A stretch of 18,542 bases of DNA, taken from positions 1 to 18,542 of the IMG/VR virus record IMGVR_UViG_2541047913_000008; one strand, written 5' to 3'. Source of the DNA: a virus (Duplodnaviria > Heunggongvirae > Uroviricota > Caudoviricetes). Positions 1-14,206 of this stretch are shown piece after piece. Within the stretch, counting starts at the first letter, position 1, and each line of letters opens with the position of its first letter. A model generated the notes under the pieces. It ran no database searches. It was given only the letters and a program-made list of their open reading frames with translations, and had not been told where the DNA came from. The position numbers were made by a program, and so were the translations under genes.

Positions 1-129
1 ATCCACTTCTGCATCAAGACGCGCCTCAAGGTTCTGCCGAAGTTGCTGTTTCAGTGCGCTCCGGACTTCTTCAGAGCGCAGGACTTCCTTCACTGCCTCA
101 GCAGTGACCAGCGATTTTATTTCTGACAT
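1..129 (-). CDS. Hypothetical protein, 5' part only (continues past the window start)
   Basis: ATG at 129..127 opens a minus-strand frame with no stop to base 1 (MSEIKSLVTAEAVKEVLRSEEVRSALKQQLRQNLEARLDAEVD...). Not in the ORF track because it is truncated. No family recognised. Confidence 0.35.
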   Translation of the reverse strand, partial: MSEIKSLVTAEAVKEVLRSEEVRSALKQQLRQNLEARLDAEVD

Positions 130-154
130 AGGATTTTCTCGTTGAAAGGGGTTA

Positions 155-349
155 TTAAGAAGGTTGTTCCGGAATGAGTGGGGCTTCTGTTTTTGCTCCG
201 GCTGACTGACTGGCGCTGATTTTCTCTGCGGCCCTTTTATCAATCTGCCTGCGCCAGAAATCGCGCACTGCCCTGTACCCACCCGAAAGAAGATACAGCA
301 CGCATACCGCCGTACAAAAGTACAGCATGAACTGATGAACTAACGTCAT
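155..349 (-). CDS. Hypothetical small membrane protein (one N-terminal hydrophobic segment, charged C-terminus)
   Basis: 64-aa ORF with ATG start; hydrophobic stretch FMLYFCTAVCVLYLLSGG followed by a basic region; weak ribosome-binding site. Not similar to the lambda or phage 21 holins I can recall. Confidence 0.3.
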   Translation of the reverse strand: MTLVHQFMLYFCTAVCVLYLLSGGYRAVRDFWRRQIDKRAAEKISASQSAGAKTEAPLIPEQPS

Positions 350-439
350 AATTTCTTACCGTTATTATTTGAAACATCCAGTAAAAAAAGGTACAAAACT
401 ACGGACATAAGAGTTAAGCAATATTTGCTGCCTTGTTTG

Positions 440-490
440 GCCAGCGCCCGGCTCCTTTATATGTTTTCCCTCCGGCGCTGGCTCTTTTTT
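440..490 (+). terminator. Plus-oriented intrinsic-terminator-like hairpin just beyond the nanS stop
   Basis: 9-bp GC-rich stem GCCAGCGCC(440-448)/GGCGCTGGC(474-482) followed by TCTTTTTT (483-490). The loop is large, so strength is uncertain. Confidence 0.3.
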
Positions 491-496
491 CGCCTG

Positions 497-2494
497 TTAT
501 GCCGCTGCTTCGCTTTCTTTCACTTTGACAGTGACCGTATCAAGCAGTACCGGATACGTCGCTTTTGCCCCCGTGATATCTGTCAGCGTCAGCGTATCTG
601 CTGTAAAGCCATCATTTGTCCACATCACAAGGTCAAACGCCGTCTGCTCTGTACCATCAATCACCGGAACGACTCTTTCGCTGTTATTTCCCGCAAAGCG
701 GAAAACAACCGTATGCCAGTTATGGTCAAACGCACCAAATGTACCCAGTTGTGCATTCGACTTGCCCTTGTGGTGCATAAGATTCAGATTTGATGCATCC
801 GTCTGAAGGAAGAATGATGCCAGCATACTGTTTGCTGCCGCGCCTGACGCCCACTGCGACACCGGCCAGTAGAGACCAAAGACAAACTGTCCGTTCACCA
901 GTTCGCTTCCGTCCGGAATTTTGAACCGTACGGCAATTTCACCCCCCTTGCTGAGAAGATTTTTTGCCTCCTCCACTGCAACAGTACGGAACATTTTCCA
1001 GGACGTCAGTTTACCGGGCTGTTTTTCCAGTCGCAGCGCTTTCCGTCCACCGTCATCAGTCACAGTGCCTTTGCCACCGGCAGCCCCCCACTGCTGCTCT
1101 GTCCATACACCATTTCCACTGTTCGCATCATATTCAGCCACCGTCCTGGTACTGCTCACGGCCTCATCATGACCAGTACCAGCAACACCGCCATCCTGCG
1201 GTTTCTCAACACCCGGTACCCCCGGACTGACATCATCACCGGGAGTTGTACCACCCGACTGCGGTGCGCTCTGCCCGGTAAGGAACGATAATGTCCGCCC
1301 GGCGTACTGCAAAATGGCACCTGCCAGGCGGTCTGAAACAAGGCCTCTTCGCGCCCAGGAGCTGAAGTGCGTTTTACGATCGGCTGACGTCCAGTTACTG
1401 GCAGTGCGTGACGCAGCGCCATAGTATCCCGCCGGGATAATGTCCGGATCTTCTGACGGCTCGTTTGTCGGCACATTCACACCATGCTCATCCGTCATCA
1501 ACGGCACAAAGAAGATTTTTTTTGCGGATTTCGTCTTGTATGCACCATACACCGCATCGTATTGCGAAGAATAAGTCTGCTTCCAGTAGTAGGTCGTGTC
1601 GCCACAAATCCAGGGAACCGATGACGGAGAGCCCCCGAGACACTGACCTCCGAATTCCGACAGGTCAGAACGATATTTTTCCACCATGGAATCAAACAGC
1701 CCCGGCTGAGTGGCGTATGCACCCTGTTTCAAATCAAACTCGCCCTGCATCCAGACCACTGCAAGCAGAATATTTTTAGGGTTAGCCTTCAGTGCGGCCT
1801 GAGTACGGGTAAGCAGGTCCTTGTACAGTGGCTTATCTACACCCCAGCGTGCCGAGGTCTCGCTTGCGCCGGTGGATTCGCTGAAAGTACCTTCATCGCC
1901 CTCCAAAAATGCAGAACCACCACGGCAGCACGGAACCAGAAGAATACCGGCATTCGCCGGAATAAACGGCAGCAGTTTTTTGGCGATATGCAGCCCCTGC
2001 CCCACAGTTCCGTACTGCCCCTTTGACAAGTCCGCTTTCGGATGGTTAAGACGGCTCATGTCCTGTACATCATGCAGACAATGGTCCGCCGGAATGATGT
2101 CGTTATATTTACAGGCGACACCACCCGGTGTCACCGTACTGCGACGCGCCAGCTGTTTAATACGCGGGTCCGGACGGTCATATGTCTCCGGCAGCGGCAG
2201 CCCTTCACCAAAAGACATTGAGTTTGACTGCCCGGCCAGGGCAACAACAAAGTAATACTCCGGTTCGCTGGTGGTGCTGATAACTGTGCCTTCTCCATCC
2301 GACGGCTTCACCACCACAGGTGTGGTGACATTACCTTCTGCGACAATCGCCTGAATAAGTGCTGCGCCATCATCCGTATACGAAGAAAACGGCCCGCCGT
2401 ATGGTTGCCATCCTTCACGAATTTTTTGAGCAAGCGCATCCGCAAGGTCTGACGGCGATGCCGCCCTGACCACATCGTAGTGTTTAAATGCCAT
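497..2494 (-). CDS. nanS: Prophage-encoded sialate O-acetylesterase of the NanS-p type (DUF1737-like N-terminus plus SASA/SGNH esterase domain plus C-terminal extension)
   Basis: 665-aa ORF, ATG start with GGAGG ribosome-binding site. N-terminus (MAFKHYDVVRAASPSDLADALAQKIREGWQPYGGPF) looks like DUF1737; GQSNS motif (in YYFVVALAGQSNSMSFGEG) matches the SASA catalytic serine motif. It sits downstream of Q as in Stx phages. Confidence 0.85.
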   Translation of the reverse strand: MAFKHYDVVRAASPSDLADALAQKIREGWQPYGGPFSSYTDDGAALIQAIVAEGNVTTPVVVKPSDGEGTVISTTSEPEYYFVVALAGQSNSMSFGEGLPLPETYDRPDPRIKQLARRSTVTPGGVACKYNDIIPADHCLHDVQDMSRLNHPKADLSKGQYGTVGQGLHIAKKLLPFIPANAGILLVPCCRGGSAFLEGDEGTFSESTGASETSARWGVDKPLYKDLLTRTQAALKANPKNILLAVVWMQGEFDLKQGAYATQPGLFDSMVEKYRSDLSEFGGQCLGGSPSSVPWICGDTTYYWKQTYSSQYDAVYGAYKTKSAKKIFFVPLMTDEHGVNVPTNEPSEDPDIIPAGYYGAASRTASNWTSADRKTHFSSWARRGLVSDRLAGAILQYAGRTLSFLTGQSAPQSGGTTPGDDVSPGVPGVEKPQDGGVAGTGHDEAVSSTRTVAEYDANSGNGVWTEQQWGAAGGKGTVTDDGGRKALRLEKQPGKLTSWKMFRTVAVEEAKNLLSKGGEIAVRFKIPDGSELVNGQFVFGLYWPVSQWASGAAANSMLASFFLQTDASNLNLMHHKGKSNAQLGTFGAFDHNWHTVVFRFAGNNSERVVPVIDGTEQTAFDLVMWTNDGFTADTLTLTDITGAKATYPVLLDTVTVKVKESEAAA

Positions 2495-2688
2495 GAATCC
2501 TCCCGGCCTGGATAATATTGTGAGTAAAATGAGGAGCGGGCTGAAGTCCGGAAGTTACAGGACAATGGCAGAAGATAGACAACAGCCCGCAATACGAAAA
2601 AGGCCGCGCTATTGCGCAGAGTGATTACTGTCGGATATTATTCGCCAGCTGAAATATTACTTCACGTTTTGTTGTTTATTCCTTGCCG

Positions 2689-2716
2689 CCCGCGTCTCCC
2701 AGCGCGGGATTTTTTT
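2689..2716 (+). terminator. Plus-oriented intrinsic terminator
   Basis: Stem CCCGCG(2689-2694)/CGCGGG(2703-2708), 8-nt loop, then A-TTTTTTT (2710-2716). Confidence 0.4.
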
Positions 2717-2727
2717 GTCCATAAGAA

Positions 2728-2747
2728 AGCCCCTCCGGAGAGGGGCT
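2728..2747. repeat. Perfect 8-bp inverted repeat with 4-nt spacer (AGCCCCTC-cgga-GAGGGGCT)
   Basis: Read directly from the sequence. Could be a hairpin or a dimeric protein-binding site. Confidence 0.5.
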
Positions 2748-3061
2748 GGAGAGTGGCGCTATGTGCCATTGCATGGTGCCGGGTGCCTCCCGGTGAGTTC
2801 AGTATCAGCACCTGAACCCGCACAGAAAGGATAAGGGTCGGTGACAAAACACCAGTTGCTGATTGCCCCTCCGCACAGGGGGATTCACCATGCCAGTTTC
2901 TTTTAACAAACTCCCCGCAAACCAGACAACAGTCAACCGCCTGAATTGTGAGGTATTTAAAAATTTCAACGGGTAACTGATACCCTGCTAATCGCCTGAT
3001 GCTTTCTTTTTCAGCAACGGGGAAGCAACAACCACCACACCCACCAGCCGCCCATTTACCA

Positions 3062-3090
3062 CAAATAAAAAAGCCTTCACTGCGGAAGGC
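3062..3090 (-). terminator. Minus-strand intrinsic terminator at the end of the 65-aa ORF
   Basis: On the minus strand: stem GCCTTC/GAAGGC (plus 3073-3078 and 3085-3090) followed by TTTTTTATT (plus A-tract 3064-3072). Overlaps the ORF stop codon. Confidence 0.6.
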
Positions 3091-3274
3091 GTCTGTAACA
3101 ACCGAACTGATAGTCTGCCAGACCCGCCATAACCAGCTGGGTCAGTATTAACTGGCAGCGTTCGCGTGAAAGGTAAGTATTCTGCGCAATCTCCCCGACG
3201 GTCGCCGGTTCGGTGACGCTTAATTCATTAAACACCACTCTGGCGGTTTCGGTCATATCCTGCTGTTTCAGCAT
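3077..3274 (-). CDS. Small winged-helix-like DNA-binding protein (hypothetical)
   Basis: 65-aa ORF with ATG start, purine-rich ribosome-binding site and its own terminator. Segment TVGEIAQNTYLSRERCQLILTQLVMAGL looks like a helix-turn-helix. Confidence 0.45.
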   Translation of the reverse strand: MLKQQDMTETARVVFNELSVTEPATVGEIAQNTYLSRERCQLILTQLVMAGLADYQFGCYRRLPQ

Positions 3275-3385
3275 GTCTTTTTCCGGTTAACGTGACACAC
3301 CAATAACTCTTGTCGAAAAAGCCAGCAAGCTGAAAGACCGGTATTCACCGCCGCCAGCGCGTTTACTGTACTGGACCGATTTCAG

Positions 3386-3412
3386 CCATAAAAAACCCGC
3401 TCGCGGCGGGTT
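3386..3412 (-). terminator. tR'-like intrinsic terminator about 60 nt downstream of Q
   Basis: On the minus strand: ACCCGC-cgcga-GCGGGT followed by TTTTTTAT (plus 3388-3412). Position matches the lambdoid late terminator that Q modifies RNA polymerase to read through. Confidence 0.6.
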
Positions 3413-3470
3413 TAAGCTGTGTGGCGTAGTAACCACTCTTAACATACTGACATACTTTTTGCGGACCGCG

Positions 3471-3863
3471 CTAATCATTTTTTACTTTTTTGGGCAGCCA
3501 GTCGTCCATCTCCAGCCTTACACCCAGCATCGACAGACATCCGTCAATAAATCCTTCAGCAATCTGCATCTCAATTCGTATTGCCTTTTCGCTCTTCTTT
3601 CTTGTTCTGGCAATCTGCCTTTTTGATATGCGCAGCAGATAATGAGCTACCAGCAGCGAATACTCGTCCGGTTTTTTCTTCTTCAGGCGCGTAAGGCAGT
3701 TTTCGATGATAAGGCCGTCATCATCGCTGCAGGCCGGGCGAGGTTTAGCGGTGGATGGTAAAAGGCCTTTAAATCCAGCAGCTATCGGAGAATAGTCCAC
3801 CCCGGCGTTACCACTTGCCGCCCATGCCCCCCAGCGTTCGAGAACCATCTGAATATCACGCAT
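3471..3863 (-). CDS. Q: Late-gene antiterminator Q (QuuD/phage-21-type family)
   Basis: Start MRDIQMVLERWGAWAA..AAGFKGL..RLKKK...RLEMD resembles the QuuD-type Q proteins of E. coli prophages as I recall them. ATG at 3863 has a GGAGA ribosome-binding site; the ORF-track start at 3878 is a TTG. Lies between the replication/DUF968 genes and the terminator. Confidence 0.7.
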   Translation of the reverse strand: MRDIQMVLERWGAWAASGNAGVDYSPIAAGFKGLLPSTAKPRPACSDDDGLIIENCLTRLKKKKPDEYSLLVAHYLLRISKRQIARTRKKSEKAIRIEMQIAEGFIDGCLSMLGVRLEMDDWLPKKVKND

Positions 3864-3880
3864 CAACTTTCTCCACAAAA

Positions 3881-4876
3881 TCAGGACAGCACACCAATCG
3901 CCAGCGCGCGATCGATAAAACGAAATATCAGCTCCAGTTGGGAACCATACTTCTCTTCAAATGCCACGGTATCCGCATGCAGTTCGTCATGGTGTTTTCT
4001 GCACAAAGGCAACACAAAAAGGTCATGCGCTTTTGTACCCATTCCACCCTGACCATGACCAATCAGGTGATGAGGATCGTCGGCTGGCTTACCACAACAT
4101 GCACACGGCTGCGTCTTAACCCAGCGCGTGTACTTTTCATTAACCCAGCGACGACGTTTGGGGCGTAACATAAAAGACTCCGGCGACTCCGGATCCACTT
4201 TCAGCGCCAGCACCTTTTTCGCCTTATCCCGGATGATGCTGGTGGCAGGAACCGAAGGCACAAGGTCACTTTCCCGGGTGACAGACGGCACAACAGGCTT
4301 CGGTAATCTCAGTGCCTTACGGGCTGCACTTTCCGGTAAGGCATCCGCCAGGTCATTACGAACCAGCCACCAGCACAGTTCCGGCATTGTCACAACGTGG
4401 CTGTCATCAAAACCGAGATCACGACGGACTACGGACAACACCCAGCGGGCACAGTTATCCGTTGCCATTGATTCCAGACGTTCCGTGAACTGATCGCGAA
4501 GCAGGTTATCGCAGTGCCAGCACAGACGGATTGCGCCCGGCGCGTGTCGCATTGTGGTCATGTTCTCGCTGTGCCATCCGGAATGAGGCCACTGGCAGCC
4601 TTTTTCACGAAGTAACCAGCTCTCAAGGCATTCCACGCCACCAGCACGACGGATCACCGCCTCATGGCGGAACACGGCCCGAACGGCAGGATCATCCGCC
4701 AGCGGTTGTGATGCTGCCGGAACGGCACCACTGGCAAAAGATGAATAACGTTCCGGCTCAGGCTCCAGCAGGACACGCCCCTGCATAAACAGGGGCATCA
4801 GCTCTGAACCGGGTCTGAACAAGACGATCCCCATACGCGGGGCAATTTCAGGGGTCAGCAGTGCTCTCACGGTCAC
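3881..4876 (-). CDS. Phage protein with C-terminal Cys/His cluster (DUF968-like, HNH/zinc-finger-like)
   Basis: 331-aa ORF. C-terminal motif CACCGKPADDPHHLIGHGQGG...CRKHHDELH. GTG start at 4876 or 4870, so the start is uncertain. Sits where nin-region genes lie in lambda. Confidence 0.5.
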   Translation of the reverse strand: MTVRALLTPEIAPRMGIVLFRPGSELMPLFMQGRVLLEPEPERYSSFASGAVPAASQPLADDPAVRAVFRHEAVIRRAGGVECLESWLLREKGCQWPHSGWHSENMTTMRHAPGAIRLCWHCDNLLRDQFTERLESMATDNCARWVLSVVRRDLGFDDSHVVTMPELCWWLVRNDLADALPESAARKALRLPKPVVPSVTRESDLVPSVPATSIIRDKAKKVLALKVDPESPESFMLRPKRRRWVNEKYTRWVKTQPCACCGKPADDPHHLIGHGQGGMGTKAHDLFVLPLCRKHHDELHADTVAFEEKYGSQLELIFRFIDRALAIGVLS

Positions 4877-4922
4877 CTCAGCGAACGGTATTGCATGAAC
4901 GCAGGAGAAAAAAATTCAGCCA

Positions 4923-5180
4923 TCACGCAGTAAACTCCTTCACCAGCGTTTCAAACTGGCTTACCTGGCCTTCCAGTTCCGCCACGCAATCCACCAGCTC
5001 ATCCACCGCCTTTTGTGTGCGGTGTTTTGCCTGCAGCAGATCACGAAGCGCCGGAGTAAGCTGCTTGCGGAGCGTATCCTTTGCCACGCTCATTTTTTCC
5101 ATCTGTTCAGCACAACGAAGCATCTCCTGCGCCTGCCGACGAAGTTGTTCCGGTGAAACAGTGGTTGTTCTGTTATTCAA
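4923..5180 (-). CDS. Hypothetical coiled-coil protein
   Basis: 85-aa ORF. TTG start overlaps the DnaB-like stop (TTGA). Heptad-like charged sequence. The real start could instead be an internal Met. Confidence 0.4.
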   Translation of the reverse strand: MNNRTTTVSPEQLRRQAQEMLRCAEQMEKMSVAKDTLRKQLTPALRDLLQAKHRTQKAVDELVDCVAELEGQVSQFETLVKEFTA

Positions 5181-6577
5181 AATAAACGCTCCGTTTTACT
5201 GCCCGACATGCGGTTATTGCTGTATCTGCGCGGATTGCTCGGCGTCATGGGTGAGGAAAGAACCTGAGCACTCTCCTGGTCCACAGGCAGAAAATGTCCG
5301 TTATGAAAACGCCGGTAAATGGTCCCGAGTGTGCCATTACGCTGTTTCGTAATGTTGATTTCTGCTATGCCTCTGGCCTGTGTATCCGGGTTATACACCT
5401 CATCCCTGTAAAGCATCAGAATGATGTCGGCATCAGCCTCTATTTCCCCGGAGTTTTTCAGGTCTGAGTTCATGGGACGTTTATTGGGTCTGGATTCCAC
5501 GCCTCGGGAGAGCTGGCTCAGAGCAATCAGCGGGAAACCGCCGGATTTTGCCAGGCTTTTAAGTCCCTTTGAGATTTCCCCCACCGCAAGGTCGTGACGC
5601 CCCGTGCTGCGGGTTTTAATCAGGCCGAGGTAATCGACCACCACCAGCGCCGTTTCCGGGTGTTTCATCCGGTGGTGCTTCGTGGTTGCACATATCTCAT
5701 CAATGGTCAGGTTTGCCTGGTCCACCATCCAGATATTACGCCCCGTCATTCGTCCCACGCCCTGCGAGAAACGCGCCCAGTCTTCATCTTCAAAACGGGC
5801 AACAGACTTAAGACGGGATACCGGCATTCCACCGGCAGCAGACACCATACGTTCACCAATCTGGATGTTCGCCATCTCCATGGTGAACAGAAGCACGCCA
5901 TGCCCCTGCTCAGTCACCTTGTCGATGATGTCCAGCGCAAGTTCGGTTTTCCCCATCGAAGGACGGGCGGCAATGAATACCAGGTCTCCGGGCTCCATAC
6001 CGCCCGTTTTTGCGTCCAGTTCATCAATACCGGTCATCAGCGCCCTGGATTTCTCCAGTCCCTGATTGCGGCATTCAACACGGTCGACCACTTCCGGAAG
6101 GACATCATCAATGTGAACCGGCTGAATGACGCCCTTTCCGGTCGACAGTGAGGCCATCATGTTCTGCACATCCTTCAGGGCATCCTCGGCTGCTTCACAG
6201 GTATACGCATCACGTAAATTCTGTAATGCTTCAGTCAGTGTTTTTTCTGCATCGCGCAGTGCGGCATTGCGCCGCAACGCTGCGACATAGTGCTCCAGTG
6301 AAGACTTCACCCAGGTTTTGCGTCCGGTGTCGGTAATCACCGGGGCAAGTTCCGGCATCTCATTGCACAGCAGTACGGGGTCAATGACGCCGGATATGCG
6401 AGCCTGTCTGCAAATCCCCGCGTAAATATCCCGGTACTGACGCACAAAAAATACATCCGCCGGAAGTGTGGCCAGAATATCCATCACTTCCGGATCGGCC
6501 CCACGCAGAAAAAACGCACCGATGACAGCGCCTTCCAGGTCATCGTTACGCCATGCCGGGGTGTTCTGGCTGGTCAT
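5177..6577 (-). CDS. DnaB-family replicative DNA helicase
   Basis: 466 aa. Walker A in FIAARPSMGKTELALD; DnaB-like N-terminal domain; ATG with GGAGG ribosome-binding site; 4-nt overlap with the upstream gene. Confidence 0.8.
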   Translation of the reverse strand: MTSQNTPAWRNDDLEGAVIGAFFLRGADPEVMDILATLPADVFFVRQYRDIYAGICRQARISGVIDPVLLCNEMPELAPVITDTGRKTWVKSSLEHYVAALRRNAALRDAEKTLTEALQNLRDAYTCEAAEDALKDVQNMMASLSTGKGVIQPVHIDDVLPEVVDRVECRNQGLEKSRALMTGIDELDAKTGGMEPGDLVFIAARPSMGKTELALDIIDKVTEQGHGVLLFTMEMANIQIGERMVSAAGGMPVSRLKSVARFEDEDWARFSQGVGRMTGRNIWMVDQANLTIDEICATTKHHRMKHPETALVVVDYLGLIKTRSTGRHDLAVGEISKGLKSLAKSGGFPLIALSQLSRGVESRPNKRPMNSDLKNSGEIEADADIILMLYRDEVYNPDTQARGIAEINITKQRNGTLGTIYRRFHNGHFLPVDQESAQVLSSPMTPSNPRRYSNNRMSGSKTERLF

Positions 6578-7473
6578 GCGGCAACACCTCCGATACGAGA
6601 ACGGTAGCTGGGCCAGTTAAACGACAACCAGTTGCGCCCGCCATCGGTGATCCTGTCGGCAATCCGGGGACTGATGAACGCCCACAATTCTTCCGGTGAA
6701 AGATTGCTGATCAAGATAGTTGGCAAAATACCCTCATACCGGGCATTGATAATTTCCTGCAAAATGGCCATTTCAGCCGCACTGCCAAACTGAACGCCGA
6801 CTTCGTCGACAATCAGCAAATCCAGTGACGCATAATGCTCAATGACGTCATCCGCTGTTTTTTCACTGTCATTCCGCCAGCAGTTTTTCACAGCCCGGGT
6901 AAGGCGCATCACGTCGGTGATCTCCACACTGGCCAGATAGTTACGGATGATGTGTTTTGCCATTGATACCGCCAGATGATTTTTCCCGGTACCGCAACTG
7001 CCGGTCATAACAAGACTGGTACCGTTCTCCAGCATATCTGGCCAGTTCTCCGCATAGCGGCGACAGGCCGCAAGATTTCTGGCTGCGTCAGGATTAACCT
7101 CCAGATAATTATCAAACTCGCAGTCCCGAAAACGCAGAGCAATTCCGGCGTTATCAGTCAGTTCTTCCGCCTTGAGGGACGACAGTTCCATGGTCAAATC
7201 ACTGGCCTCAGCGATCAAGCAGTCAGGGCAGCATGAAATTTTTTCTCTGTCCTCGCCATTACGATCGATCCACACCAGTATATGCGTACGATATTTACCG
7301 TGTTTTTCGCAATATCCGCGACCTTCACGCATCAGGCAGGAACGATAAGGCCATGGCTTTTCGCCCTTCTGAGCAAATGCAATCTCTGCCCGTAACTCAT
7401 CCATTTCTGCCCGTAAATCATCCATTCGCGCCTGTAGTCTTGTTTGTTTCTCACGTTGGTCAATCATCATCAT
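6574..7473 (-). CDS. DnaC/IstB-like AAA+ helicase loader with N-terminal Cys/His cluster
   Basis: Walker A LVMTGSCGTGKNHLAVS; Walker B-like LLIVDEVG. ATG at 7473 follows a GAGGTG ribosome-binding site; the track start at 7482 is a GTG. N-terminal CEKHGKYRTH...CCPDC. Confidence 0.75.
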   Translation of the reverse strand: MMMIDQREKQTRLQARMDDLRAEMDELRAEIAFAQKGEKPWPYRSCLMREGRGYCEKHGKYRTHILVWIDRNGEDREKISCCPDCLIAEASDLTMELSSLKAEELTDNAGIALRFRDCEFDNYLEVNPDAARNLAACRRYAENWPDMLENGTSLVMTGSCGTGKNHLAVSMAKHIIRNYLASVEITDVMRLTRAVKNCWRNDSEKTADDVIEHYASLDLLIVDEVGVQFGSAAEMAILQEIINARYEGILPTILISNLSPEELWAFISPRIADRITDGGRNWLSFNWPSYRSRIGGVAA

Positions 7474-7483
7474 CGCTGTCACC

Positions 7484-8476
7484 TCAGAATGTCAATTTGT
7501 TACTGGATTTACCAAATTTGTCAGACATGGCTCCCAGGCCAGCCAGGACATCGACCTGTCGCTGTCGCCCACCTCCGTGAGCGGCTGGCTGTTGCCAGTA
7601 ATCTTCGAAGTGACGATCGGGTCCAAAGAACGTCGCAGCCTGCTTCACGAACTGTGTGCCGGTATTTCCTGTAGCACGTACCCAGGCGGCATACCGCTTC
7701 ACGCCATCAAGCATGGTCTCCGGTTTTATTCCCTCCCTGATACGGGCTTTCCAGGCTTTGAAGGCTGCTGACTTGGAATTGCCACCAGCACGTTTGGGAT
7801 ATTCCTGCCAGGCCTGTTCAAATTCCGGTGAATATTCCTGTCTGGCAGAACGCGCTGGTGCAGACGCGTCAGCGGATGCGCCAATAGTGTTTTTAGTCTC
7901 CGTTGTAATCTCTGTAGTAATCTCTGTATTTGTATCAACATTCGGCGTATCCCCTGTTCCGTTACGACGTCGGGGGGTGTTCCGTTTTAACGTAATAGCT
8001 GTATCGCTGATTGCATTATTGCTGTTACTTTCTGGCGAAACAGAAGAAGGTGTGGTGATGGCCGCAATTGCCTGTGGGTTGATCCCGACAAACAAAATAT
8101 TGCTACATTTCACCCCATCGAGCATTTCCACCGTGCGTAAATCCAGAGTAATAAACCCGGCATCACGGAGACGCTTCAGCGCATCTGCGGTTTCCCTTTT
8201 CCCGAAACCAAACTGCTCAGCAAACGCCTGGTAGCTTCTTTGCAGTTTGTCGCCCTGAAAACGCTTGCGATATCCCAGCAACGCTCCGGTGTGCTCATCC
8301 CTGACCTCTGTCGGGCGGTACCAGTAAACGATCTCTGAAAGCAGAGCGATAGCCGTCGCATCCGGACGCCCACTGGGTAGTCGAATATATTTCCACCAGG
8401 TCGCAGGTGTAACATTGCCGGAAATATTAATTTGACCAATAGCCATAACTTCCGGTGTGGGGGCGTAACGGCTCAT
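7484..8476 (-). CDS. Replication initiator (O-like, replisome organiser)
   Basis: 330 aa, ATG with GGAAGGAGG ribosome-binding site, directly upstream of the DnaC-like and DnaB-like genes. Contains a low-complexity linker (TNTEITTEITTE) encoded by direct DNA repeats, as in the lambda O gene. Confidence 0.6.
   Translation of the reverse strand: MSRYAPTPEVMAIGQINISGNVTPATWWKYIRLPSGRPDATAIALLSEIVYWYRPTEVRDEHTGALLGYRKRFQGDKLQRSYQAFAEQFGFGKRETADALKRLRDAGFITLDLRTVEMLDGVKCSNILFVGINPQAIAAITTPSSVSPESNSNNAISDTAITLKRNTPRRRNGTGDTPNVDTNTEITTEITTETKNTIGASADASAPARSARQEYSPEFEQAWQEYPKRAGGNSKSAAFKAWKARIREGIKPETMLDGVKRYAAWVRATGNTGTQFVKQAATFFGPDRHFEDYWQQPAAHGGGRQRQVDVLAGLGAMSDKFGKSSNKLTF
7897..7986. repeat. Iteron-like direct repeats inside the O-like gene (candidate origin of replication)
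   Basis: Three ~12-bp units TCTCCGTTGTAA / TCTCTGTAGTAA / TCTCTGTATTTGTA (about 7897-7935), plus two copies of GTTCCGTT about 30 bp apart (about 7949-7986). Confidence 0.4.
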
Positions 8477-8772
8477 ACAACCTCCTTCCGCAGCATGAGA
8501 ATTGTGTAGCCACGCGCAGGTTGTAGTCTGGCTTTTGCATCAATAGTAAGCGTTGCAATTTTTCGGATATGAAGATAACCAGCTCTTTCCAGTGCCAGGG
8601 TTTCCCTGAATATCGCTTGCTTAGAACAACAGCAGAAATCAGCAAGCACCTGATGATCAATAACTCTCTCGCCTTCACCGTCTGAAGAACCCGACATCAA
8701 AACACGCAACATAATCAGGCGCTGAATCGGGTTATCGAAAGCACATCCGCACACAAACTGAAAACAGTTCAC
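8473..8772 (-). CDS. Hypothetical protein
   Basis: 99 aa. GTG start with GGGAGG ribosome-binding site; 4-nt overlap with the flanking genes. Confidence 0.4.
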   Translation of the reverse strand: MNCFQFVCGCAFDNPIQRLIMLRVLMSGSSDGEGERVIDHQVLADFCCCSKQAIFRETLALERAGYLHIRKIATLTIDAKARLQPARGYTILMLRKEVV

Positions 8773-8993
8773 GCCACACCTCCCAGACGCTTAAACATTT
8801 TTCCGGAGCAAAAGGCTATAAGCGGCATACTGATGCGGTAATTACGGCCCAGCGGTTCACAAATCACCTTCTGACATTCACGGTCAACCAGGCTGACACG
8901 TAGAACATGCCCTGCAGGCGTGGTGTACCACTGACCAGGACGAGGACAACGGAAAGTCTGATTGGTAAACCGTTTGAAAATATTCCGGATCAT
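8769..8993 (-). CDS. Hypothetical protein
   Basis: 74 aa. ATG overlaps the stop of the Rha-like gene (ATGA). Confidence 0.4.
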   Translation of the reverse strand: MIRNIFKRFTNQTFRCPRPGQWYTTPAGHVLRVSLVDRECQKVICEPLGRNYRISMPLIAFCSGKMFKRLGGVA

Positions 8994-9535
8994 TTGCGCC
9001 CCCTTACCTCTGAAGGGTTCAGCGACAAATTTATGAGACTGGCCAGTAGCGCCGCGTCGTTGATGCGGTCATACAGACTTACAGCCAGCGGGGATTCGGC
9101 TTTTGCCAACATGGGATAAAGCTGCTGCAGCCAGACCTGATGAATTGATGAAATGTAGGAATAGAGAACGCTGGCGTTATGTGCAACGTCGCTCAGTACA
9201 GAGGGATTTGAAAGCTGTTTCTCCATCTGGTTAAAGGCATTGATGTATGCCTCTTTGAACTGGGCAGCACGTTTACCCGTGAAACCCATAGCAAGAAACG
9301 CAAAGCCGTCGCGGGTTATTTGATAGCAAGGTAGTTTGCGGCCTGTGCAATCGGTGTAATCACTCACCGAAAAATTGCGGGAAGTGAATGATGCAGAGCA
9401 TTCAAGCGTGCGGATCTTTTTCAGTACATCGTCATGACGTTTGGAGAAGAAGTTGGCAACAGCCAGGGATGAAGTAACAGCCTGACCATCAACGATGGCA
9501 ATTTCAGGTTGAGTGAGGGTTGGGATCGTAGCCAT
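8990..9535 (-). CDS. Rha-family phage regulatory protein
   Basis: Motif VTSSLAVANFFSKRHDDVLKKIRTL matches the Rha N-terminal signature. ATG at 9535 has a GGAGG ribosome-binding site. The ORF-track start at 9835 adds 100 residues rich in Ala/Gly/Ser/Pro that do not look like protein, so I prefer 9535. Confidence 0.6.
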   Translation of the reverse strand: MATIPTLTQPEIAIVDGQAVTSSLAVANFFSKRHDDVLKKIRTLECSASFTSRNFSVSDYTDCTGRKLPCYQITRDGFAFLAMGFTGKRAAQFKEAYINAFNQMEKQLSNPSVLSDVAHNASVLYSYISSIHQVWLQQLYPMLAKAESPLAVSLYDRINDAALLASLINLSLNPSEVRGRK

Positions 9536-9699
9536 GATGGCAGCCTCCGTTGACTGTGGAAAACTTCCACCACCGGAGCTGCGAAACTCACTGGTGGCAG
9601 ACTGAACAGGGTTCGCAGTACCGGCGTCAACGGAGACCGGCGAGCCTTTCGGCTCCCCTGCCCAGCCCACCATAATTCTGGCGTGCGTGAGCGCGGACG

Positions 9700-9721
9700 A
9701 TAAAAAAGACGCTGGCGCGTC
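9700..9721 (-). terminator. Minus-strand intrinsic-terminator-like hairpin between the cro-proximal genes and the replication genes
   Basis: On the minus strand: GACGC-gcca-GCGTC followed by TTTTTTAT (plus 9701-9721). Short 5-bp stem. Confidence 0.35.
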
Positions 9722-9918
9722 ATATATCGCCGTTGACAATTCCGGGCTGCGACCCCCGGCACCCGCTTTATAAGGTGCCTGAGCAGTGTAACGTCCCGGA
9801 ATTGCAGAATCAATATTTGGTCTTGAAATGATCATATAGCTGCTGATATCTTTAGAACTGTTCTTGGATGTTTCGGAGCCGTTTTATGCGAAACAGCTCC
9901 CCGTTATTGATGTTGAGT

Positions 9919-9944
9919 GAGCCGGGTTACTCCCGGCTTTTTTT
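9919..9944 (+). terminator. Plus-oriented intrinsic terminator abutting the stop of the 235-aa gene (oop-like arrangement)
   Basis: Stem GAGCCGGG/CCCGGCTT region (9919-9937) with 5-nt loop, followed by TTTTTTT (9938-9944). Antisense to the early-right operon, as the lambda oop terminator is. Confidence 0.5.
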
Positions 9945-10651
9945 CATCGCTGCCAACCAATAACCTGAAATAACCCCATTTTCGGGTGATACCAGCGAGT
10001 CCCTCGCGGTTCTGCTTCCTCCATAACCCGATAAAAAGCAGCCATAAACGGTTCCACAGCAACAATTGCGCGACGTGACAACAATCCGTCCGGCGTCATG
10101 AACTCATGTGTGTCTGTAGGAATTTGATAGGCGTTCACCAGATTGCGGCATTTATCATCTGACAAACCGGTTTTTGCTTTCAGTTGGCGATATCCGGCAT
10201 AGCCCTCACGAATAGTGCCCTTTTTAATTTGCTCGACTGTTTCAGCAACGTGGCTGACTTTTTCTTCCACCTGAGTGATCCGTTTCTGTTGGCGAACGGC
10301 TTCAAGAGCCATCGCGGCAACCATTTCGATTTCGCTCATTGGCTTACGGATCTGTTCTTCCAGTTCGCGCCAGCGATCTACCAGGCGAGCTGTGAATTCA
10401 GGACAGAGCTGTGCGACGACAATGATGCTGTCGCGCTTACCTCGTTCACCTTCGAATACATACGCGCTAGAAAATCGGCGAGGCCCAAGTGATTGTTTAT
10501 TCTCAATTTCCACAGTCTGTGGAAATTGGATGATTCCCTTTTTAGCCAGTGTTTCAATAGTTCTCTTAACACTATCTGGTCGGCTTCCCACCAGCTCTGC
10601 GATCTCAACGCTGGTCATGGATGCTTTGCCGTTAAAAATTGCGGTGTTCAT
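9944..10651 (-). CDS. Phage regulatory protein in the cII position, Rha/antirepressor-like N-terminus
   Basis: 235 aa. ATG overlaps the cro-like stop (ATGA); AGGAG ribosome-binding site. N-terminal segment SVEIAELVGSRPDSVKRTIETLAKKGII looks like a helix-turn-helix. Family assignment tentative. Confidence 0.5.
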   Translation of the reverse strand: MNTAIFNGKASMTSVEIAELVGSRPDSVKRTIETLAKKGIIQFPQTVEIENKQSLGPRRFSSAYVFEGERGKRDSIIVVAQLCPEFTARLVDRWRELEEQIRKPMSEIEMVAAMALEAVRQQKRITQVEEKVSHVAETVEQIKKGTIREGYAGYRQLKAKTGLSDDKCRNLVNAYQIPTDTHEFMTPDGLLSRRAIVAVEPFMAAFYRVMEEAEPRGTRWYHPKMGLFQVIGWQR

Positions 10652-10938
10652 TGTTTATCTCCTGCGTGTATTCCATCCGCTCTGTGTGGTGAACTTGGAT
10701 TTAGGCTTTTGCGTAACAAGTTAGGAATTCCATCTTCAGGGTGAGGATAAAGATCTGGCCTTAAGCCATGAGGCGTAACCTTCCATGCAACTACTTCACA
10801 TACTCGTAAAACGAAACGAGCAGGAATTGTGCTTTTTGAAAACCACTGATTCACCGCTTGCGGCGTCACACCAAGATTTCGCGCTATGGCATTTTGCGCA
10901 ATTAATGCACGAAGTTTGTCGTAATCATTTCCTTCCAT
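10648..10938 (-). CDS. cro: Cro-like (YdaS-type) helix-turn-helix regulator
   Basis: 96 aa, divergent from cI. Helix-turn-helix IARNLGVTPQAVNQWFS. Weak ribosome-binding site. Confidence 0.6.
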   Translation of the reverse strand: MEGNDYDKLRALIAQNAIARNLGVTPQAVNQWFSKSTIPARFVLRVCEVVAWKVTPHGLRPDLYPHPEDGIPNLLRKSLNPSSPHRADGIHAGDKQ

Positions 10939-11071
10939 AACAAAACACCAATATTAACTTTATAAATCAAGAATACATCAAGTTTAAATTAACATGCAAG
11001 TTACAAAAGGATCGAATACACTAAAATCAAGTAAAGATTTATCCTTGTAAAGAAACCCACAGGATTTGGTC
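10939..11071. promoter_or_regulatory. Divergent cro/cI control region (right-operator-like promoters and operators)
   Basis: 133-bp AT-rich spacer between divergent cro-like and cI genes. Repeated motifs AAATCAAG / CATCAAG / AAATCAAG and CTTGTAAAG. Confidence 0.55.
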
Positions 11072-11761
11072 ATGAAGAACGTCAAAAACACGGAAAATCG
11101 AATAGCCGCGATGCTGAAAGCAAAAGGATGGACTCAGGCTCAACTGGCCCGCAAGTTAGGTGTGAGTGCGCAATCAGTGCAGTACTGGACAACAGGAAAA
11201 ACATTTCCACGGAGTGATAAGCTCGCGCATTTATCAGAGATTAGCGGTTATCCACAATCCTGGTTCTTAGGTGAAGACTCCTCACCAACCTTTTCCTCGC
11301 AAGAGAAACACCAGACAAGAACAGATAGCGTCGTATTTAATGTCCTTGATGTTGAGTTTAGTTGCGGTGATGGAACTCATGTCCGTGGTGACTTGATAGA
11401 TGTAGTGCGCTCAATAGAACTTGATCCTGAATATGCCCGACGTCTTGTTGGAAATCGGGCATTCAAAAATATAGAAATAGGTAACGCCAGAGGAGACAGT
11501 ATGGCTCCCACAATCTCACCTGGCGACCTTCTTTTTCTTGATAAGACAGTAACTTATTTTGATGGCGATGGTATTTATGCATTTTGTTTTGATGGAGAAT
11601 GCTACGTGAAAAGGCTTCAAAAAATTGGAAGCAAAATCATGGTGTTATCTGATAACCCCAATTATCAACCATGGAGCATCGAAAAAGAGGGGTTAGCTCT
11701 GCTTTATATCCAGTCTAAAGTGATCTCATCAGTACCATTCAACATAAACAGATTTGGTTAG
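11072..11761 (+). CDS. cI: cI-type prophage repressor (N-terminal helix-turn-helix plus C-terminal S24 LexA-like autopeptidase)
   Basis: Helix-turn-helix WTQAQLARKLGVSAQSVQYW; S24 motifs GDSMAPTISPGDLLFLD and YVKRL. ATG at 11072 with AGGA ribosome-binding site; the track start at 11066 is a TTG. Confidence 0.85.
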   Translation: MKNVKNTENRIAAMLKAKGWTQAQLARKLGVSAQSVQYWTTGKTFPRSDKLAHLSEISGYPQSWFLGEDSSPTFSSQEKHQTRTDSVVFNVLDVEFSCGDGTHVRGDLIDVVRSIELDPEYARRLVGNRAFKNIEIGNARGDSMAPTISPGDLLFLDKTVTYFDGDGIYAFCFDGECYVKRLQKIGSKIMVLSDNPNYQPWSIEKEGLALLYIQSKVISSVPFNINRFG

Positions 11762-11772
11762 TCTTTGATTTT

Positions 11773-11797
11773 AACGGGCTTTGCCCGTTTTTTTCTG
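11773..11797 (+). terminator. Intrinsic terminator after cI
   Basis: AACGGGC-tttg-GCCCGTT followed by TTTTTTT. Confidence 0.65.
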
Positions 11798-11824
11798 CCT
11801 GAAATATACGATATCAATTTTTTC

Positions 11825-11853
11825 TTGACAGCCTGTTTCCCAAAACATAATAT
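11825..11853 (+). promoter_or_regulatory. Near-consensus sigma70 promoter (candidate left promoter or cargo promoter)
   Basis: -35 TTGACA (11825-11830), 17-bp spacer, -10 TAATAT (11848-11853). Palindrome ATCAAttataacTTGAT lies just downstream (11860-11876) and shares ATCAA/CTTGAT with the cro/cI control region. Confidence 0.55.
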
Positions 11854-11906
11854 CGCACCATCAATTATAACTTGATTTGATTCAATTTAAAATTGTTGGC
11901 GGATAT

Positions 11907-12455
11907 ATGAAGACACTAAAAGCAACTCCAGAAACAACTAATTTTATCAACTGCGGCTGTGTTACGCTTAAGGGCTTAGAACTTGATTCCTTTGCATTAA
12001 ATATTGCAAATTTGCTAAGTGCTGTACGCACATTCCATCTTCTGGATTGTGCTCGCTCAAAGGAACTGGGCATTGAGGTAATGGAATTTATCCATGAATA
12101 TGCTCTATCTGCTGCTTCTCCTGCACAGCAAAAACAATCCTTCCCTGAAAGCTGGCTGGTTAACCTTCGCACCCAACGCGAAGCCTGCGGCTTAACAACC
12201 GCCGAACTCGCCAGGCTGCTCGATCTCGATGAAGAAATTATCATCCAGTGGGAGAGCGGAGAGTACGAACCAACCATCAGCATGCTTATCCCACTGGCAA
12301 ATATTCTTGGCTGCGATCCGATGTGCCTGTTAACTGGTGAGGTTACTCCTCCGGAGAAACCAAAAAGTGAGGAGCAGCAACACCATGACGCATCTCAACA
12401 AGTTTGCCCCTTATCTCGCGAAGCTCTTCTGCGGAAGAACCAATACCAATGGTGA
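11907..12455 (+). CDS. XRE-family helix-turn-helix protein with unrecognised ~95-aa N-terminal domain
   Basis: ATG at 11907 (the track start at 11877 is a TTG). C-terminal helix-turn-helix LTTAELARLLDLDEEIIIQWESGEYEPTISMLIPLANILGCDPMCLL. First gene after the promoter. Confidence 0.55.
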   Translation: MKTLKATPETTNFINCGCVTLKGLELDSFALNIANLLSAVRTFHLLDCARSKELGIEVMEFIHEYALSAASPAQQKQSFPESWLVNLRTQREACGLTTAELARLLDLDEEIIIQWESGEYEPTISMLIPLANILGCDPMCLLTGEVTPPEKPKSEEQQHHDASQQVCPLSREALLRKNQYQW

Positions 12456-12583
12456 CATAATCGCCGCTTCGCCCTTCAAGGTACATGCGAACATTTTTAT
12501 CAATCATTGCGGAAACAGTCTCAATATGAAAACACTTCTGAGACTCGCTATATAGCAGAACATATAAGTCAGCTGAGGAAGCC

Positions 12584-12949
12584 ATGAAAAAGTTCGAAAA
12601 CATAACTGTTCTCCATGTTGATGACTTTGATTATACAAACCCGGAACTTCTCCCGGAGGTTGTAAAGGCAATAGATGTTGCCGATATAGTGATTAGAGAA
12701 AAGAGAATTGTCAAAAACAGGCTCGCATGCACTTCAGGAGCAATGACAGAAACAACCTCACAGCAAGATAATTACGAAGGCATTTGTCTGGAGCCTGATT
12801 CATTTGCGGTAAATGTTTATCATTTATTGCATGCAACACAGGTATTACATATGTCCAGTAATCACGAAACGAAAACACTCGGCAGCGAAATTCTGAGTTT
12901 TGCATGTGAGTATACAAAAGCTGCTGCCGAAAAAGAATTAGCGCAATAA
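12584..12949 (+). CDS. Hypothetical protein, no family recognised
   Basis: 121-aa ORF. ATG with GAGGAA ribosome-binding site 5 nt upstream. Confidence 0.5.
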   Translation: MKKFENITVLHVDDFDYTNPELLPEVVKAIDVADIVIREKRIVKNRLACTSGAMTETTSQQDNYEGICLEPDSFAVNVYHLLHATQVLHMSSNHETKTLGSEILSFACEYTKAAAEKELAQ

Positions 12950-13027
12950 CAACAAATATGCCCTGAACGTTTATTGCGGTTTTATCGCCGGGGATTGTTA
13001 CAACCTTAATCCACAGGAGGCTTTATT

Positions 13028-13141
13028 GTGACTTTTATAAAGAATATGGCATCACACAAGACCGCCTGCCTTATTGCACAATACGGTGAAAATTACATGC
13101 ATATTGCCTGCTTATTTCTGCGTAAAGCATACGGGAGATAA
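13028..13141 (+). CDS. Small upstream ORF (37 aa) with perfect Shine-Dalgarno sequence; possible leader peptide
   Basis: AGGAGG 7 nt upstream of GTG at 13028; stop 2 nt before the ATG of the next gene. Not in the ORF track because it is short. Confidence 0.3.
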   Translation: MTFIKNMASHKTACLIAQYGENYMHIACLFLRKAYGR

Positions 13142-13143
13142 TA

Positions 13144-13344
13144 ATGCATCAGAAAACAGCAGAACACGAACAAACCAGAGTATTGCTGACCATCAAAAAC
13201 GGGAAAGTAATATTCATTCGCCATGTTCATGACGATGAACTTGTAGGAAATCTTTCAACATTCCTGTTTATTGCAGAAAAGGCAGGATATGACGTTATTG
13301 CACCAGCAGATGAAGATGAAGATGAAGATGAAGATGAGGAATAA
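13144..13344 (+). CDS. Small protein with poly-acidic C-terminal tail
   Basis: 66 aa, GGAGA ribosome-binding site. C-terminus ADEDEDEDEDEE is encoded by a GATGAA tandem repeat. Confidence 0.5.
   Translation: MHQKTAEHEQTRVLLTIKNGKVIFIRHVHDDELVGNLSTFLFIAEKAGYDVIAPADEDEDEDEDEE
13309..13338 (+). repeat. In-frame hexanucleotide tandem repeat (GATGAA x4 plus GATGAG)
   Basis: Read directly: gatgaa gatgaa gatgaa gatgaa gatgag at the 3' end of the 66-aa gene. Confidence 0.9.
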
Positions 13345-13349
13345 ATATC

Positions 13350-13931
13350 ATGCAATACGATGAATTCCAGGCTGAAGCAACAGCCAATGGTATACGAACT
13401 GGCAGTATGACGATTGATTATCACGACGCCATACGTCGTCTGGATGCCGGAGAATTCGATACTCCTAATGTGCGAGGTTTACGTATCCTTCAGTGTCTGG
13501 CGCAAGCCGACGAAGCAGGATTACTGGGTAAACTTCCGGTTGAGATGAAGGTTGCTCAGTGGCGATGGTTGTATGTGACGACATTCATCAACGAAGAAGA
13601 AGACAAGAACGGCACAATTGATATCCTGAATGAACACGGAACAACTGAACACGCCGTGGTATATAACGGGATGTATGGGTTTATGACGATATATCCCGGC
13701 CCCATTCGATTTGCCTTACAACAGTATATTGAATGGAATTTAATTCAAAAATACGGCGAAGCTGAAGGAATGGGAAGAGCGCTGTTTCTTTATCAGAAAA
13801 TGCTCACTACTTCCCCTGATAAAGGTTTCATTCTTTCAGATATGGGTCGAGAAGGGCTTGAAATCCTTCTGGATGAAATTATTAACGAAATGAATACTCA
13901 TGGCATGCAATCCGAAACAGATATTAAGTAA
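13350..13931 (+). CDS. Hypothetical protein, translationally coupled to the acidic-tail gene
   Basis: 193 aa. ATG 6 nt after the upstream stop, with GAGGAA as ribosome-binding site. No family recognised. Confidence 0.5.
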   Translation: MQYDEFQAEATANGIRTGSMTIDYHDAIRRLDAGEFDTPNVRGLRILQCLAQADEAGLLGKLPVEMKVAQWRWLYVTTFINEEEDKNGTIDILNEHGTTEHAVVYNGMYGFMTIYPGPIRFALQQYIEWNLIQKYGEAEGMGRALFLYQKMLTTSPDKGFILSDMGREGLEILLDEIINEMNTHGMQSETDIK

Positions 13932-13941
13932 AAGGGACCAC

Positions 13942-14163: not shown

Positions 14164-14206
14164 TAGTGATGTTCCGACAGGAGAGAGCAGAGAAAGGGGA
14201 ATCAGC

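Follow-up and report, generated by a model that had tools for sequence, protein, structure and literature searches.

What is a gene for a 65-amino-acid winged-helix (wH) protein doing in the late leader of a lambdoid prophage, bracketed by two terminator-like hairpins and placed directly after the gene of the antiterminator Q? The question is raised by the 18,542-nucleotide stretch of tailed-phage DNA at positions 1 to 18,542 of IMG/VR record IMGVR_UViG_2541047913_000008 (hereafter the window, whose numbering is used throughout). The genes concerned are encoded on its minus strand, where they make up the late-control region of the prophage. A preliminary description regarded a DNA-binding protein at this place as unusual and proposed that it might regulate the downstream cargo or the late genes. 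We find instead that the open reading frame (ORF) is an ordinary, widespread prophage gene, here a leftover rather than a special late-gene regulator. It very probably belongs to a cassette of two genes in the late leader of lambdoid and N15-like phages, in which it comes first; the second, a gene for an M.EcoGII-type adenine methyltransferase, has been lost from the window. This high confidence covers the identity of the ORF and its cassette jointly; the best explanation as a whole, with its mechanism included, is held tentatively, at somewhat less than an even chance. The gene in question is the following:

3077-3274, minus strand: gene for the 65-amino-acid wH protein, phrog_331 (profile match, identity to phage proteins, substitution pattern, AlphaFold model, Foldseek).

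The ORF starts at an ATG and no longer reading frame is possible there. Its product matches the phrog_331 profile over residues 1-64, i.e., over the full length (E 1.4e-37), has 334 relatives in the databases, and is 100% identical to L23 of phage phiP27 and 94% identical to orf47 of SfV; the ORF itself is thus already catalogued as a known phage protein. Substitutions are overwhelmingly synonymous, with proportions of synonymous (pS) and nonsynonymous (pN) differences of 0.49 and 0.02 in the comparison with SfV and of 0.6-0.88 (saturated) and 0.08-0.2 in comparisons with other genera, and with a median ratio of nonsynonymous to synonymous rates (dN/dS) of 0.17. Because of the profile match, the number of relatives and a pN far below pS, the ORF is, judging from its pattern of change, a genuine coding gene under purifying selection and not a chance frame. 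The AlphaFold model of the protein (pLDDT 93.4) consists of helices at residues 9-16, 26-33 and 37-49 followed by strands at 53-56 and 59-62 (H-H-H-beta-beta), that is, of the three helices and the beta-hairpin wing of a winged helix-turn-helix (wHTH) domain. Foldseek matches it to wHTH domains of the MarR/IclR type with TM scores of up to 0.80, and a structure search of BFVD returns generic winged-helix matches. The recognition helix (RCQLILTQLVMAGL) is the best-conserved part of the protein. On these points the preliminary description holds up well: the sequence and structure searches agree with its small wH gene immediately behind Q in the late leader, its coordinates for the ORF and the two flanking hairpins are right within one or two bases, and both hairpins indeed have the form of terminators, the upstream one strong and the downstream one weaker.

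A closer family assignment was sought and rejected. NCBI labels the ORF family as TrmB, and the protein scores 18 bits against PF01978, where the Pfam cut-off is 25.6; with MarR_2 it reaches 14.7 bits of the 27 needed, and it falls below the Pfam thresholds of DprA_WH and HTH_24 as well. Since these curated family thresholds are not reached, the "TrmB family" label is only a hint at the level of the fold. Members of the MarR family are expected to have dimerisation helices at the N- and C-terminal ends and about 140 amino acids in all, and the 65-residue protein corresponds to the wHTH core only, with no dimerisation helices. No NCBIfam model matches the protein, and a sequence search of the PDB with it returned a single chance match (E 0.63).

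The gene is common. At a coverage of at least 80%, ORF DNA is present in 2266 of 5426 complete Escherichia coli genomes (42%), in up to seven copies per genome, and it is found in 55 phage records, including those of phiP27, SfV, 1720a-02, mEp460, cdtI and many Stx2 phages; the view that its position is unusual cannot be kept. The family as a whole is narrow, with 61 representatives among 1.84 billion clustered proteins, nearly all of them from Enterobacterales. In all annotated relatives that were opened (phiP27, SfV, mEp460, phiNP, 1720a-02 and OkiPb01711), a 350-amino-acid N6_N4 DNA methyltransferase is encoded about 150 bp downstream of the ORF. A scan with one genome per species found the methyltransferase at this same distance in 23 of 24 loci, which represent about 15 genera and three unrelated Q families. 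The other neighbours change: Q is sometimes more than 1 kb away, with a GIY-YIG nuclease gene or another gene in between in some phages, and the downstream cargo may consist of tRNAs with stx, an AraC-type gene, holins or an esterase. As the methyltransferase is the sole constant neighbour whatever the Q family and the cargo, the ORF most likely serves the methyltransferase and not, as had been proposed, the cargo or the late genes. The linkage is also seen from the side of the enzyme. Among the SfV-type methyltransferase loci of IMG/VR, 78 of 79 have the wH gene 149-150 bp upstream (it is absent in one and disrupted in two), and a member of the wH family lies upstream in about 57 of 86 distinct loci of the N15 or Aeromonas type, a count that excludes 14 contigs returned by both scans. 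The common order of the cassette is a terminator, a promoter-like block, the wH gene, a hairpin over its stop codon, a leader of about 140 nucleotides, the methyltransferase gene, a terminator and the lysis genes.

Two more distant arrangements extend this picture. N15 gp51 (75 amino acids; L035:1006-1233 in our numbered set of related loci) is a distant homologue of the ORF product (hhalign probability 86%, E 5e-6) and is encoded upstream of the methyltransferase gp52, from which it would follow that the pairing reaches the telomere phages. The promoter and the terminator annotated in N15 lie between the two genes, which therefore appear to be transcribed separately. In phage Mu, Com is a small translational activator with a four-cysteine zinc ribbon, encoded ahead of a toxic late adenine-modifying enzyme. 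A Mu Com-like zinc-ribbon gene (PF10122, 1.6e-6) overlaps the beginning of a methyltransferase gene homologous to that of the cassette in Aeromonas phage phiARM81ld (L034:1329-1544), and the same overlap is seen in three IMG/VR loci (the Com-like loci are listed as L119-L121 and L163). In the Aeromonas phages the Com-like gene thus takes the position that the wH gene holds in enterobacterial phages, and by analogy this suggests that the enzyme is controlled post-transcriptionally. As to the enzyme itself, the M.EcoGII paper names the methyltransferase of 1720a-02 as very similar to M.EcoGII, an enzyme that acts non-specifically, damages cells in which it is expressed and is silent in the lysogen (PMC5778455).

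The space between the ORF and the methyltransferase gene of the relatives is occupied by a leader of about 140 nucleotides (L005:3200-3345 and L003:4157-4300, minus strand, together with a further 24 related loci). It is more conserved than either of the coding regions, with dozens of invariant columns despite the saturation of synonymous sites. The predicted fold has 36 pairs, arranged in three helices and a long-range helix in which GGTCACAAGC pairs with GCTTACTGATC, the bases just before the ATG of the enzyme. Of the alignment cells concerned 96.6% are paired, a share that falls to 25-41% if one partner is slid along the other, and eight pairs are changed on both sides, which is reached by none of 500 shuffles. 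This covariation is limited by the close similarity of the sequences, from whose alignment the structure itself was derived. In this model the leader appears to occlude the start region of the methyltransferase gene and is a candidate for a new cis-regulatory RNA; no Rfam family matches it at E <= 1. It is also found upstream of the enzyme gene in Vibrio phage VHML (E 9e-10; L036:1351-1450) and in many IMG/VR loci.

In the window, the leader and the enzyme gene are gone, and the place where they are expected is taken by two short segments:

3037-3057, minus strand: remnant of the leader, corresponding to the first long stem's 5' arm, with a Chi site GCTGGTGG at 3041-3048 (nhmmer, leader positions 5-25 only).

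2993-3036, no strand assigned: a 44-bp filler that replaces about 1178 bp of leader and methyltransferase gene (comparison with L003; seen only in window-type loci).

Positions 3037-3900 of the window match positions 4267-5138 of the methyltransferase-bearing locus L003, and positions 2401-2992 match its positions 2502-3088. Homology to such loci covers Q, the ORF and its hairpin, breaks off at 3037 and resumes at 2992, which corresponds to about 10 bp past the stop codon of the enzyme gene in relatives. The first 20 or so nucleotides are all that survives of the leader, and the left breakpoint lies directly after GGCTGGTGGGTG, which contains the Chi site. Because 44 bp have replaced both the leader and the methyltransferase gene, the wH gene of the window is an orphan. 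The intact junction of wH gene, leader and methyltransferase gene is present in 1872 E. coli genomes, against 201 with the window-type junction and 2266 with the ORF. Copies of the window-type junction are at least 99% identical (best 10 of 201), and its loss of the enzyme gene fits a single recent event; the retention of the ORF in these 201 genomes could reflect either an independent function or the recency of that event.

The wH gene was kept upon loss of the methyltransferase gene in L002 and L026 as well. In L002 (E. coli AR_0013), homology breaks at the same point as in the window and an AraC-type gene stands in place of the enzyme gene; an AraC-family gene and then three tRNA genes (L002:3369-4082) fill the slot downstream of the same ORF, so that the methyltransferase slot is a point of cargo exchange. 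The Chi site, on the minus strand and oriented with late transcription, lies at the point of homology loss in the window and, independently, in L002. Chi was considered as a conserved feature of this place and rejected: in the Plesiomonas locus a change of GG to AA with a matching change of CC to TT destroys Chi and keeps the stem, and it is therefore the structure and not Chi that is conserved. A further peculiarity of the window is that the 5' untranslated region of the ORF (3275-3292, minus strand) lacks 7 nucleotides that nearly all relatives have and that belong to the purine-rich Shine-Dalgarno stretch; their absence may weaken the translation of the orphan ORF.

How would the gene be expressed? 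Genes for a DnaB-like protein and a DUF968/HNH protein, followed by Q, precede the ORF, and three elements lie between them and the conserved block discussed below:

3471-3878, minus strand: gene of the antiterminator Q (Pfam PF06530 Phage_antitermQ, 3.3e-52; an annotated homologue starts a few codons inside).

3441-3475, minus strand: candidate pR' promoter with a repeat resembling a Q-binding element (direct repeat and aligned -10-like hexamer).

3388-3413, minus strand: tR'-like hairpin, the first terminator-like structure after Q (fold energy, positional conservation, SfV annotation).

The product of the Q gene has a distant sequence match to the solved structure of Q21 (1.4e-7). Directly past the Q stop codon, AGTATGT occurs twice with an 8-bp period (3442-3456) and overlaps the -10-like hexamer CAGTAT (3444-3449), which aligns with TATCAT, TAATCT and TATCCT in relatives with the same type of Q; positions 3441-3475 are our candidate for a pR' with its Q-binding element. 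A scan of the minus strand of positions 1-7000 with the strict sigma-70 consensus reported no promoter, this candidate included. The upstream hairpin, with the stem AAACCCGC/GCGGGTTT at 3393-3413 and a TTTAT tract that reaches to 3388, has a folding energy of -16.1 kcal/mol (z = -3.3), and none of 200 shuffled sequences folds as well. Of 24 related loci, 22 have a hairpin with a T-run at this position, and the sequences of their stems are of at least six kinds; the tR'-like terminator is thus conserved in position and not in sequence. Its equivalent in SfV is annotated as a rho-independent terminator. Terminator-like sites are generally frequent in this region (17 within positions 1-7000, with 7.1 +/- 2.8 expected). 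Q and the terminator are present, and the candidate promoter and binding element, if real, would supply the rest of a Q-dependent late leader.

Two further observations concern this part of the leader. A 17-nucleotide inverted repeat, 88% complementary, connects 3393-3409 in the tR'-like hairpin with the conserved segment 3348-3364, 28 nucleotides downstream, and this pairing could give an alternative, larger structure in read-through transcripts. In phiP27, the GIY-YIG/T5orf172 nuclease gene L22 (L004:1556-2785) lies between Q and a promoter-like site (TTGCGG-17-TATCCT), which precedes the same terminator as that of the window; L22 has the appearance of a homing-type insertion that separates Q from pR'.

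Two more conserved elements flank the ORF at close range:

3293-3329, minus strand: promoter-like or operator-like block (invariant columns across 24 loci).

3063-3090, minus strand: hairpin over the ORF stop codon with a U-run, a weak intrinsic terminator or attenuator (terminator scan, fold, covariation).

The upstream block consists of CTTGCTG at 3323-3329, a variable spacer and AGAGTTATTGGTGTGTCA. Across the genera represented by the 24 loci, CTTGCTG and AGAGTTAT..GT.TG..A are invariant and the 13 nucleotides between them vary. The block can be read with promoter geometry, as a -35 element TTGCTG (3323-3328), a 17-bp spacing, a -10 element TATTGG (3300-3305) or TATCTG, and an invariant A at 3293, seven bases on. 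It is a doubtful candidate for a local promoter of the ORF; the ORF may be expressed by Q-dependent read-through, from a local promoter, or by both routes. Other explanations of the block were looked for. An RNAalifold-type check of the region between the upstream hairpin and the ATG gave no conserved RNA fold that would explain it. Long-range pairing of CUUGCUG with codons 4-6 of the ORF (CAGCAAG) was rejected, the ORF side being variable and the leader side constant, with a consensus of only -2.2 kcal/mol in RNAalifold, and pairing of 3315-3324 with 3274-3283, which would mask the ribosome-binding site, was rejected as a family feature since it is confined to the E. coli clade. An inverted-repeat search of 3275-3385 found no palindromic operator, and an Rfam search of 3062-3412 found no known RNA family, the only match being STnc100 further downstream.

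The downstream hairpin, GCCTTC-CGCAGT-GAAGGC at 3073-3090 followed by TTTTTTATTT down to 3063, was recognised in the terminator scan as canonical in form, with a 6-bp GC-rich stem and then UUUUUUAUUU. Its fold in isolation is weak (-8.9 kcal/mol, z = -1.4). When 26 relatives are aligned, however, pairing is kept in 89% of cases over its four predicted stem pairs, and in three of these both sides have changed. The stop codon of the ORF, TGA at 3077-3079, lies within its loop and 3' arm. A well-developed U-run is confined to the E. coli/Shigella clade and a few others. With this covariation-conserved hairpin and U-run the ORF has a downstream terminator of its own, as is typical of a "moron".

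The order of these elements can be combined into the following scenario. It is established for lambda and Stx phages that pR' is constitutive and that its transcription is terminated at tR' (PMC7547250). By extension from lambdoid biology, polymerase starting in the lysogen at a constitutive pR' just past Q would stop at the 3388-3413 hairpin. During lytic growth, Q-modified polymerase would read through both hairpins and make the ORF a late gene, and a weak local promoter at 3293-3329 may add some Q-independent expression. The wH protein would then be a dedicated controller of the toxic methyltransferase and would act either on the conserved upstream block or on the leader, whose last helix is predicted to pair the bases just before the methyltransferase ATG, in the manner of Mu Com acting on mom. 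This Com-like logic, which is drawn by analogy, is the reading that we prefer, and we regard it as distinctly possible and somewhat less than an even bet. It is favoured because a Com-like gene occupies the same slot, the leader appears to cover the enzyme start, M.EcoGII needs no partner for its activity, and N15 appears to transcribe the two genes separately. In the window the target is gone, and the wH protein is probably inert with respect to the esterase, STnc100 and the lysis genes.

A number of observations weigh against a dedicated controller. The ORF is intact in the 201 genomes that have no methyltransferase gene at this junction. Conversely, nine methyltransferase loci have the leader and no wH gene and 16 have neither; VHML, too, has the leader with no obvious small gene, and the same leader and methyltransferase accompany wH proteins whose central segments are of two very different kinds. 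The isoelectric point of the window protein is acidic (5.1), and those of many relatives are acidic or neutral, which is atypical for a stand-alone nucleic-acid binder. The -10 element of the upstream block has G and not T at -7, so that the consensus scan misses it, and the limited covariation of the leader has already been mentioned. The cloned M.EcoGII is active alone, and no partner is strictly needed (PMC5778455). A literature search, by protein accessions and the phrog identifier among other routes, found no paper or experiment on the function of the ORF protein.

In the main rival reading, the wH protein would be a methyltransferase subunit that binds the enzyme 1:1 and directs or restricts its choice of substrate, whether phage DNA, RNA or particular sequences; M.EcoGII would then appear "non-specific" as an enzyme deprived of its partner, and the protein of the window would be an orphan subunit. 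The tight co-occurrence of the two genes at a fixed distance speaks for it, and so does the acidic isoelectric point, which would fit a protein-binding role and argues mildly against simple DNA binding. There is also a precedent, PNB-2 of Stx phage PA8, a small wH protein encoded just upstream of an MT-A70 methyltransferase, with which it co-purifies 1:1 and which it switches to 16S rRNA (PMC10810198). However, homology of the ORF product to PNB-2 is not detectable (hhalign probability 13.6% over 19 columns), and the PNB-2 methyltransferase belongs to another family and another phage region. The top Foldseek matches include N-terminal wH domains of S-adenosylmethionine-dependent O-methyltransferases, but at E of about 1e-3 they amount to generic wH similarity. 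M.EcoGII works alone, the N15 homologue and its methyltransferase appear to be separate transcription units, and the Com-like gene at the same position and the conserved structured leader are left unexplained. Overall, we consider a subunit role unlikely.

More doubtful still is an autonomous "moron" transcription factor, equipped with a promoter and a terminator of its own, expressed from the prophage and regulating late genes, cargo (STnc100, the NanS-p-like esterase) or host genes. Terminator-like hairpins on both flanks, a conserved block with promoter geometry in front of the gene and a fold shared with MarR/IclR-type DNA-binding domains would all suit such a factor, but a protein of 65 amino acids lacks the dimerisation helices of those regulators and is acidic, and a search of the leader for a palindromic operator found none. 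The cargo and the Q families vary among relatives and the methyltransferase alone is constant. That the gene is intact where the methyltransferase was lost would also be expected of an autonomous factor, but the window-type junctions with no methyltransferase, being at least 99% identical (best 10 of 201), look like one recent event and not like independent retention. Finally, the wH protein may be a safeguard: small amounts of it would be produced in the lysogen from a promoter of its own and would counteract leaky methyltransferase much as an antitoxin does, either as a translational repressor or through binding to the enzyme, and the stop-codon hairpin would limit read-through into the enzyme gene. 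Expression of the enzyme is harmful to cells, the order of terminator, promoter, gene and hairpin insulates the small gene from the enzyme gene, and retention of the wH gene in the absence of the methyltransferase is seen in the window, L002 and L026, the opposite state being rare in the SfV-type set. This safeguard is hard to separate from the preferred controller, and many more distant methyltransferase loci have no wH gene; we regard it as improbable.

Returning to the dedicated controller, it can be placed in a wider frame. The wH protein, the 140-nucleotide leader and the M.EcoGII-family methyltransferase may constitute one undescribed three-part module in which the small protein gates or retargets the enzyme, either by opening the leader, as Com does in Mu, or by binding the enzyme, as PNB-2 does. 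From the conserved arrangement we rate this as a real possibility that falls short of an even chance. N15-like phages and roughly a third of E. coli genomes carry the set, and a new variant of Com/mom or PNB-2 logic, mostly outside the window, is possible.

The DNA beyond the orphan ORF offers no sign of late-gene or cargo control by it. The main element there is the following:

2717-2922, minus strand: match to the small RNA STnc100 (Rfam, 143 bits), ending in a strong hairpin at 2728-2747.

STnc100 is a known prophage small RNA usually found beside esterase genes. Its match in the window has its own terminator and is followed by the gene of a NanS-p-like SASA esterase (497-2494), with a further terminator-like site at 2604-2619. 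Since the 2728-2747 and 2604-2619 sites come in addition to the two ORF hairpins, a late transcript must pass four terminator-like sites before it reaches the esterase gene. No tRNA genes or tRNA remnants, which would recall the arrangement of Stx phages, were found between Q and the esterase gene. Far upstream, on the minus strand, Rfam matches to C4 antisense RNA (78.8 bits; 9590-9677) and isrK (58.7 bits; 9702-9778) lie next to each other, which suggests a P1/P7-like RNA immunity module of the c4/antirepressor type in the early region.

For the window itself the significance of these findings is small, as a common ORF is present minus its usual neighbour. The interest lies in the relatives. 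The M.EcoGII-type enzymes, which are widely used as tools, are to our knowledge the only truly non-specific adenine methyltransferases, and we found nothing written on the means by which phages silence them and later put them to use. The wH gene and the leader offer two testable handles on this question. If the three-part module is real, the enzyme in infected cells would behave differently from the cloned biotechnology tool, and the window would be a natural "enzyme-less" variant.

It remains to compare the locus with the systems that it resembles. The nearest are phiP27 L23 and SfV orf47, which have no described function: they belong to the same family, occupy the same place after Q and have the same flanking hairpins, and they differ in that the adjacent methyltransferase gene (L24, orf48) is kept there and lost in the window. 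The enzyme that normally follows the ORF belongs to the same family as M.EcoGII and M.EcoGI, and 1720a-02 carries the ORF just upstream of it; the passages of the M.EcoGII paper that were searched make no mention of an upstream small gene or leader (PMC5778455), and the window lacks the enzyme. With lambda 6S RNA and StxS (PMC7547250) the window shares the layout of Q, a promoter and an immediate downstream terminator, from which a short RNA of about 50 nucleotides ending at 3388-3413 is predicted; its sequence is unrelated to StxS, it matches no Rfam family, and the position of its promoter is inferred. The AGTATGT repeat with its 8-bp period recalls the binding element of Q21, in which two 8-bp subsites are arranged as a direct repeat (10.1101/651190).

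Controller (C) proteins of restriction-modification systems are likewise small proteins of a DNA-binding type that are encoded ahead of a methyltransferase gene, and a role in timing its expression is proposed here for the wH protein. They are, however, Xre-type helix-turn-helix dimers that act on palindromic C-boxes and are accompanied by a restriction gene, whereas the ORF encodes a winged helix; this identity was rejected, since no HTH_3-type match was obtained, 3275-3385 holds no palindromic operator, and no restriction gene is present in the related loci whose neighbours were examined. PNB-2 and its methyltransferase M.EcoPA8orf6770P share with the cassette the placing of a small wH gene directly in front of the gene of a phage adenine methyltransferase, with a terminator before the pair. 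PNB-2 has 143 amino acids, works with an MT-A70 enzyme and belongs to the early-left region, whereas the cassette combines the ORF with a beta-class N6_N4 enzyme in the late leader. The com-mom operon of Mu resembles the cassette in its logic: in the relatives, too, the late region encodes a nucleic-acid-binding-type protein of about 60-70 amino acids directly ahead of an adenine-modifying enzyme that is harmful and non-specific, and the leader is predicted to cover the enzyme start, the enzyme gene being deleted in the window. A Com-type zinc ribbon was excluded for the ORF product, which has no PF10122 match in Pfam and no CxxC pairs. Its fold is a winged helix and its binding to RNA is putative, and the wH gene lies 150 bp from the enzyme gene with no overlap, the enzyme being a methyltransferase and not Mom.

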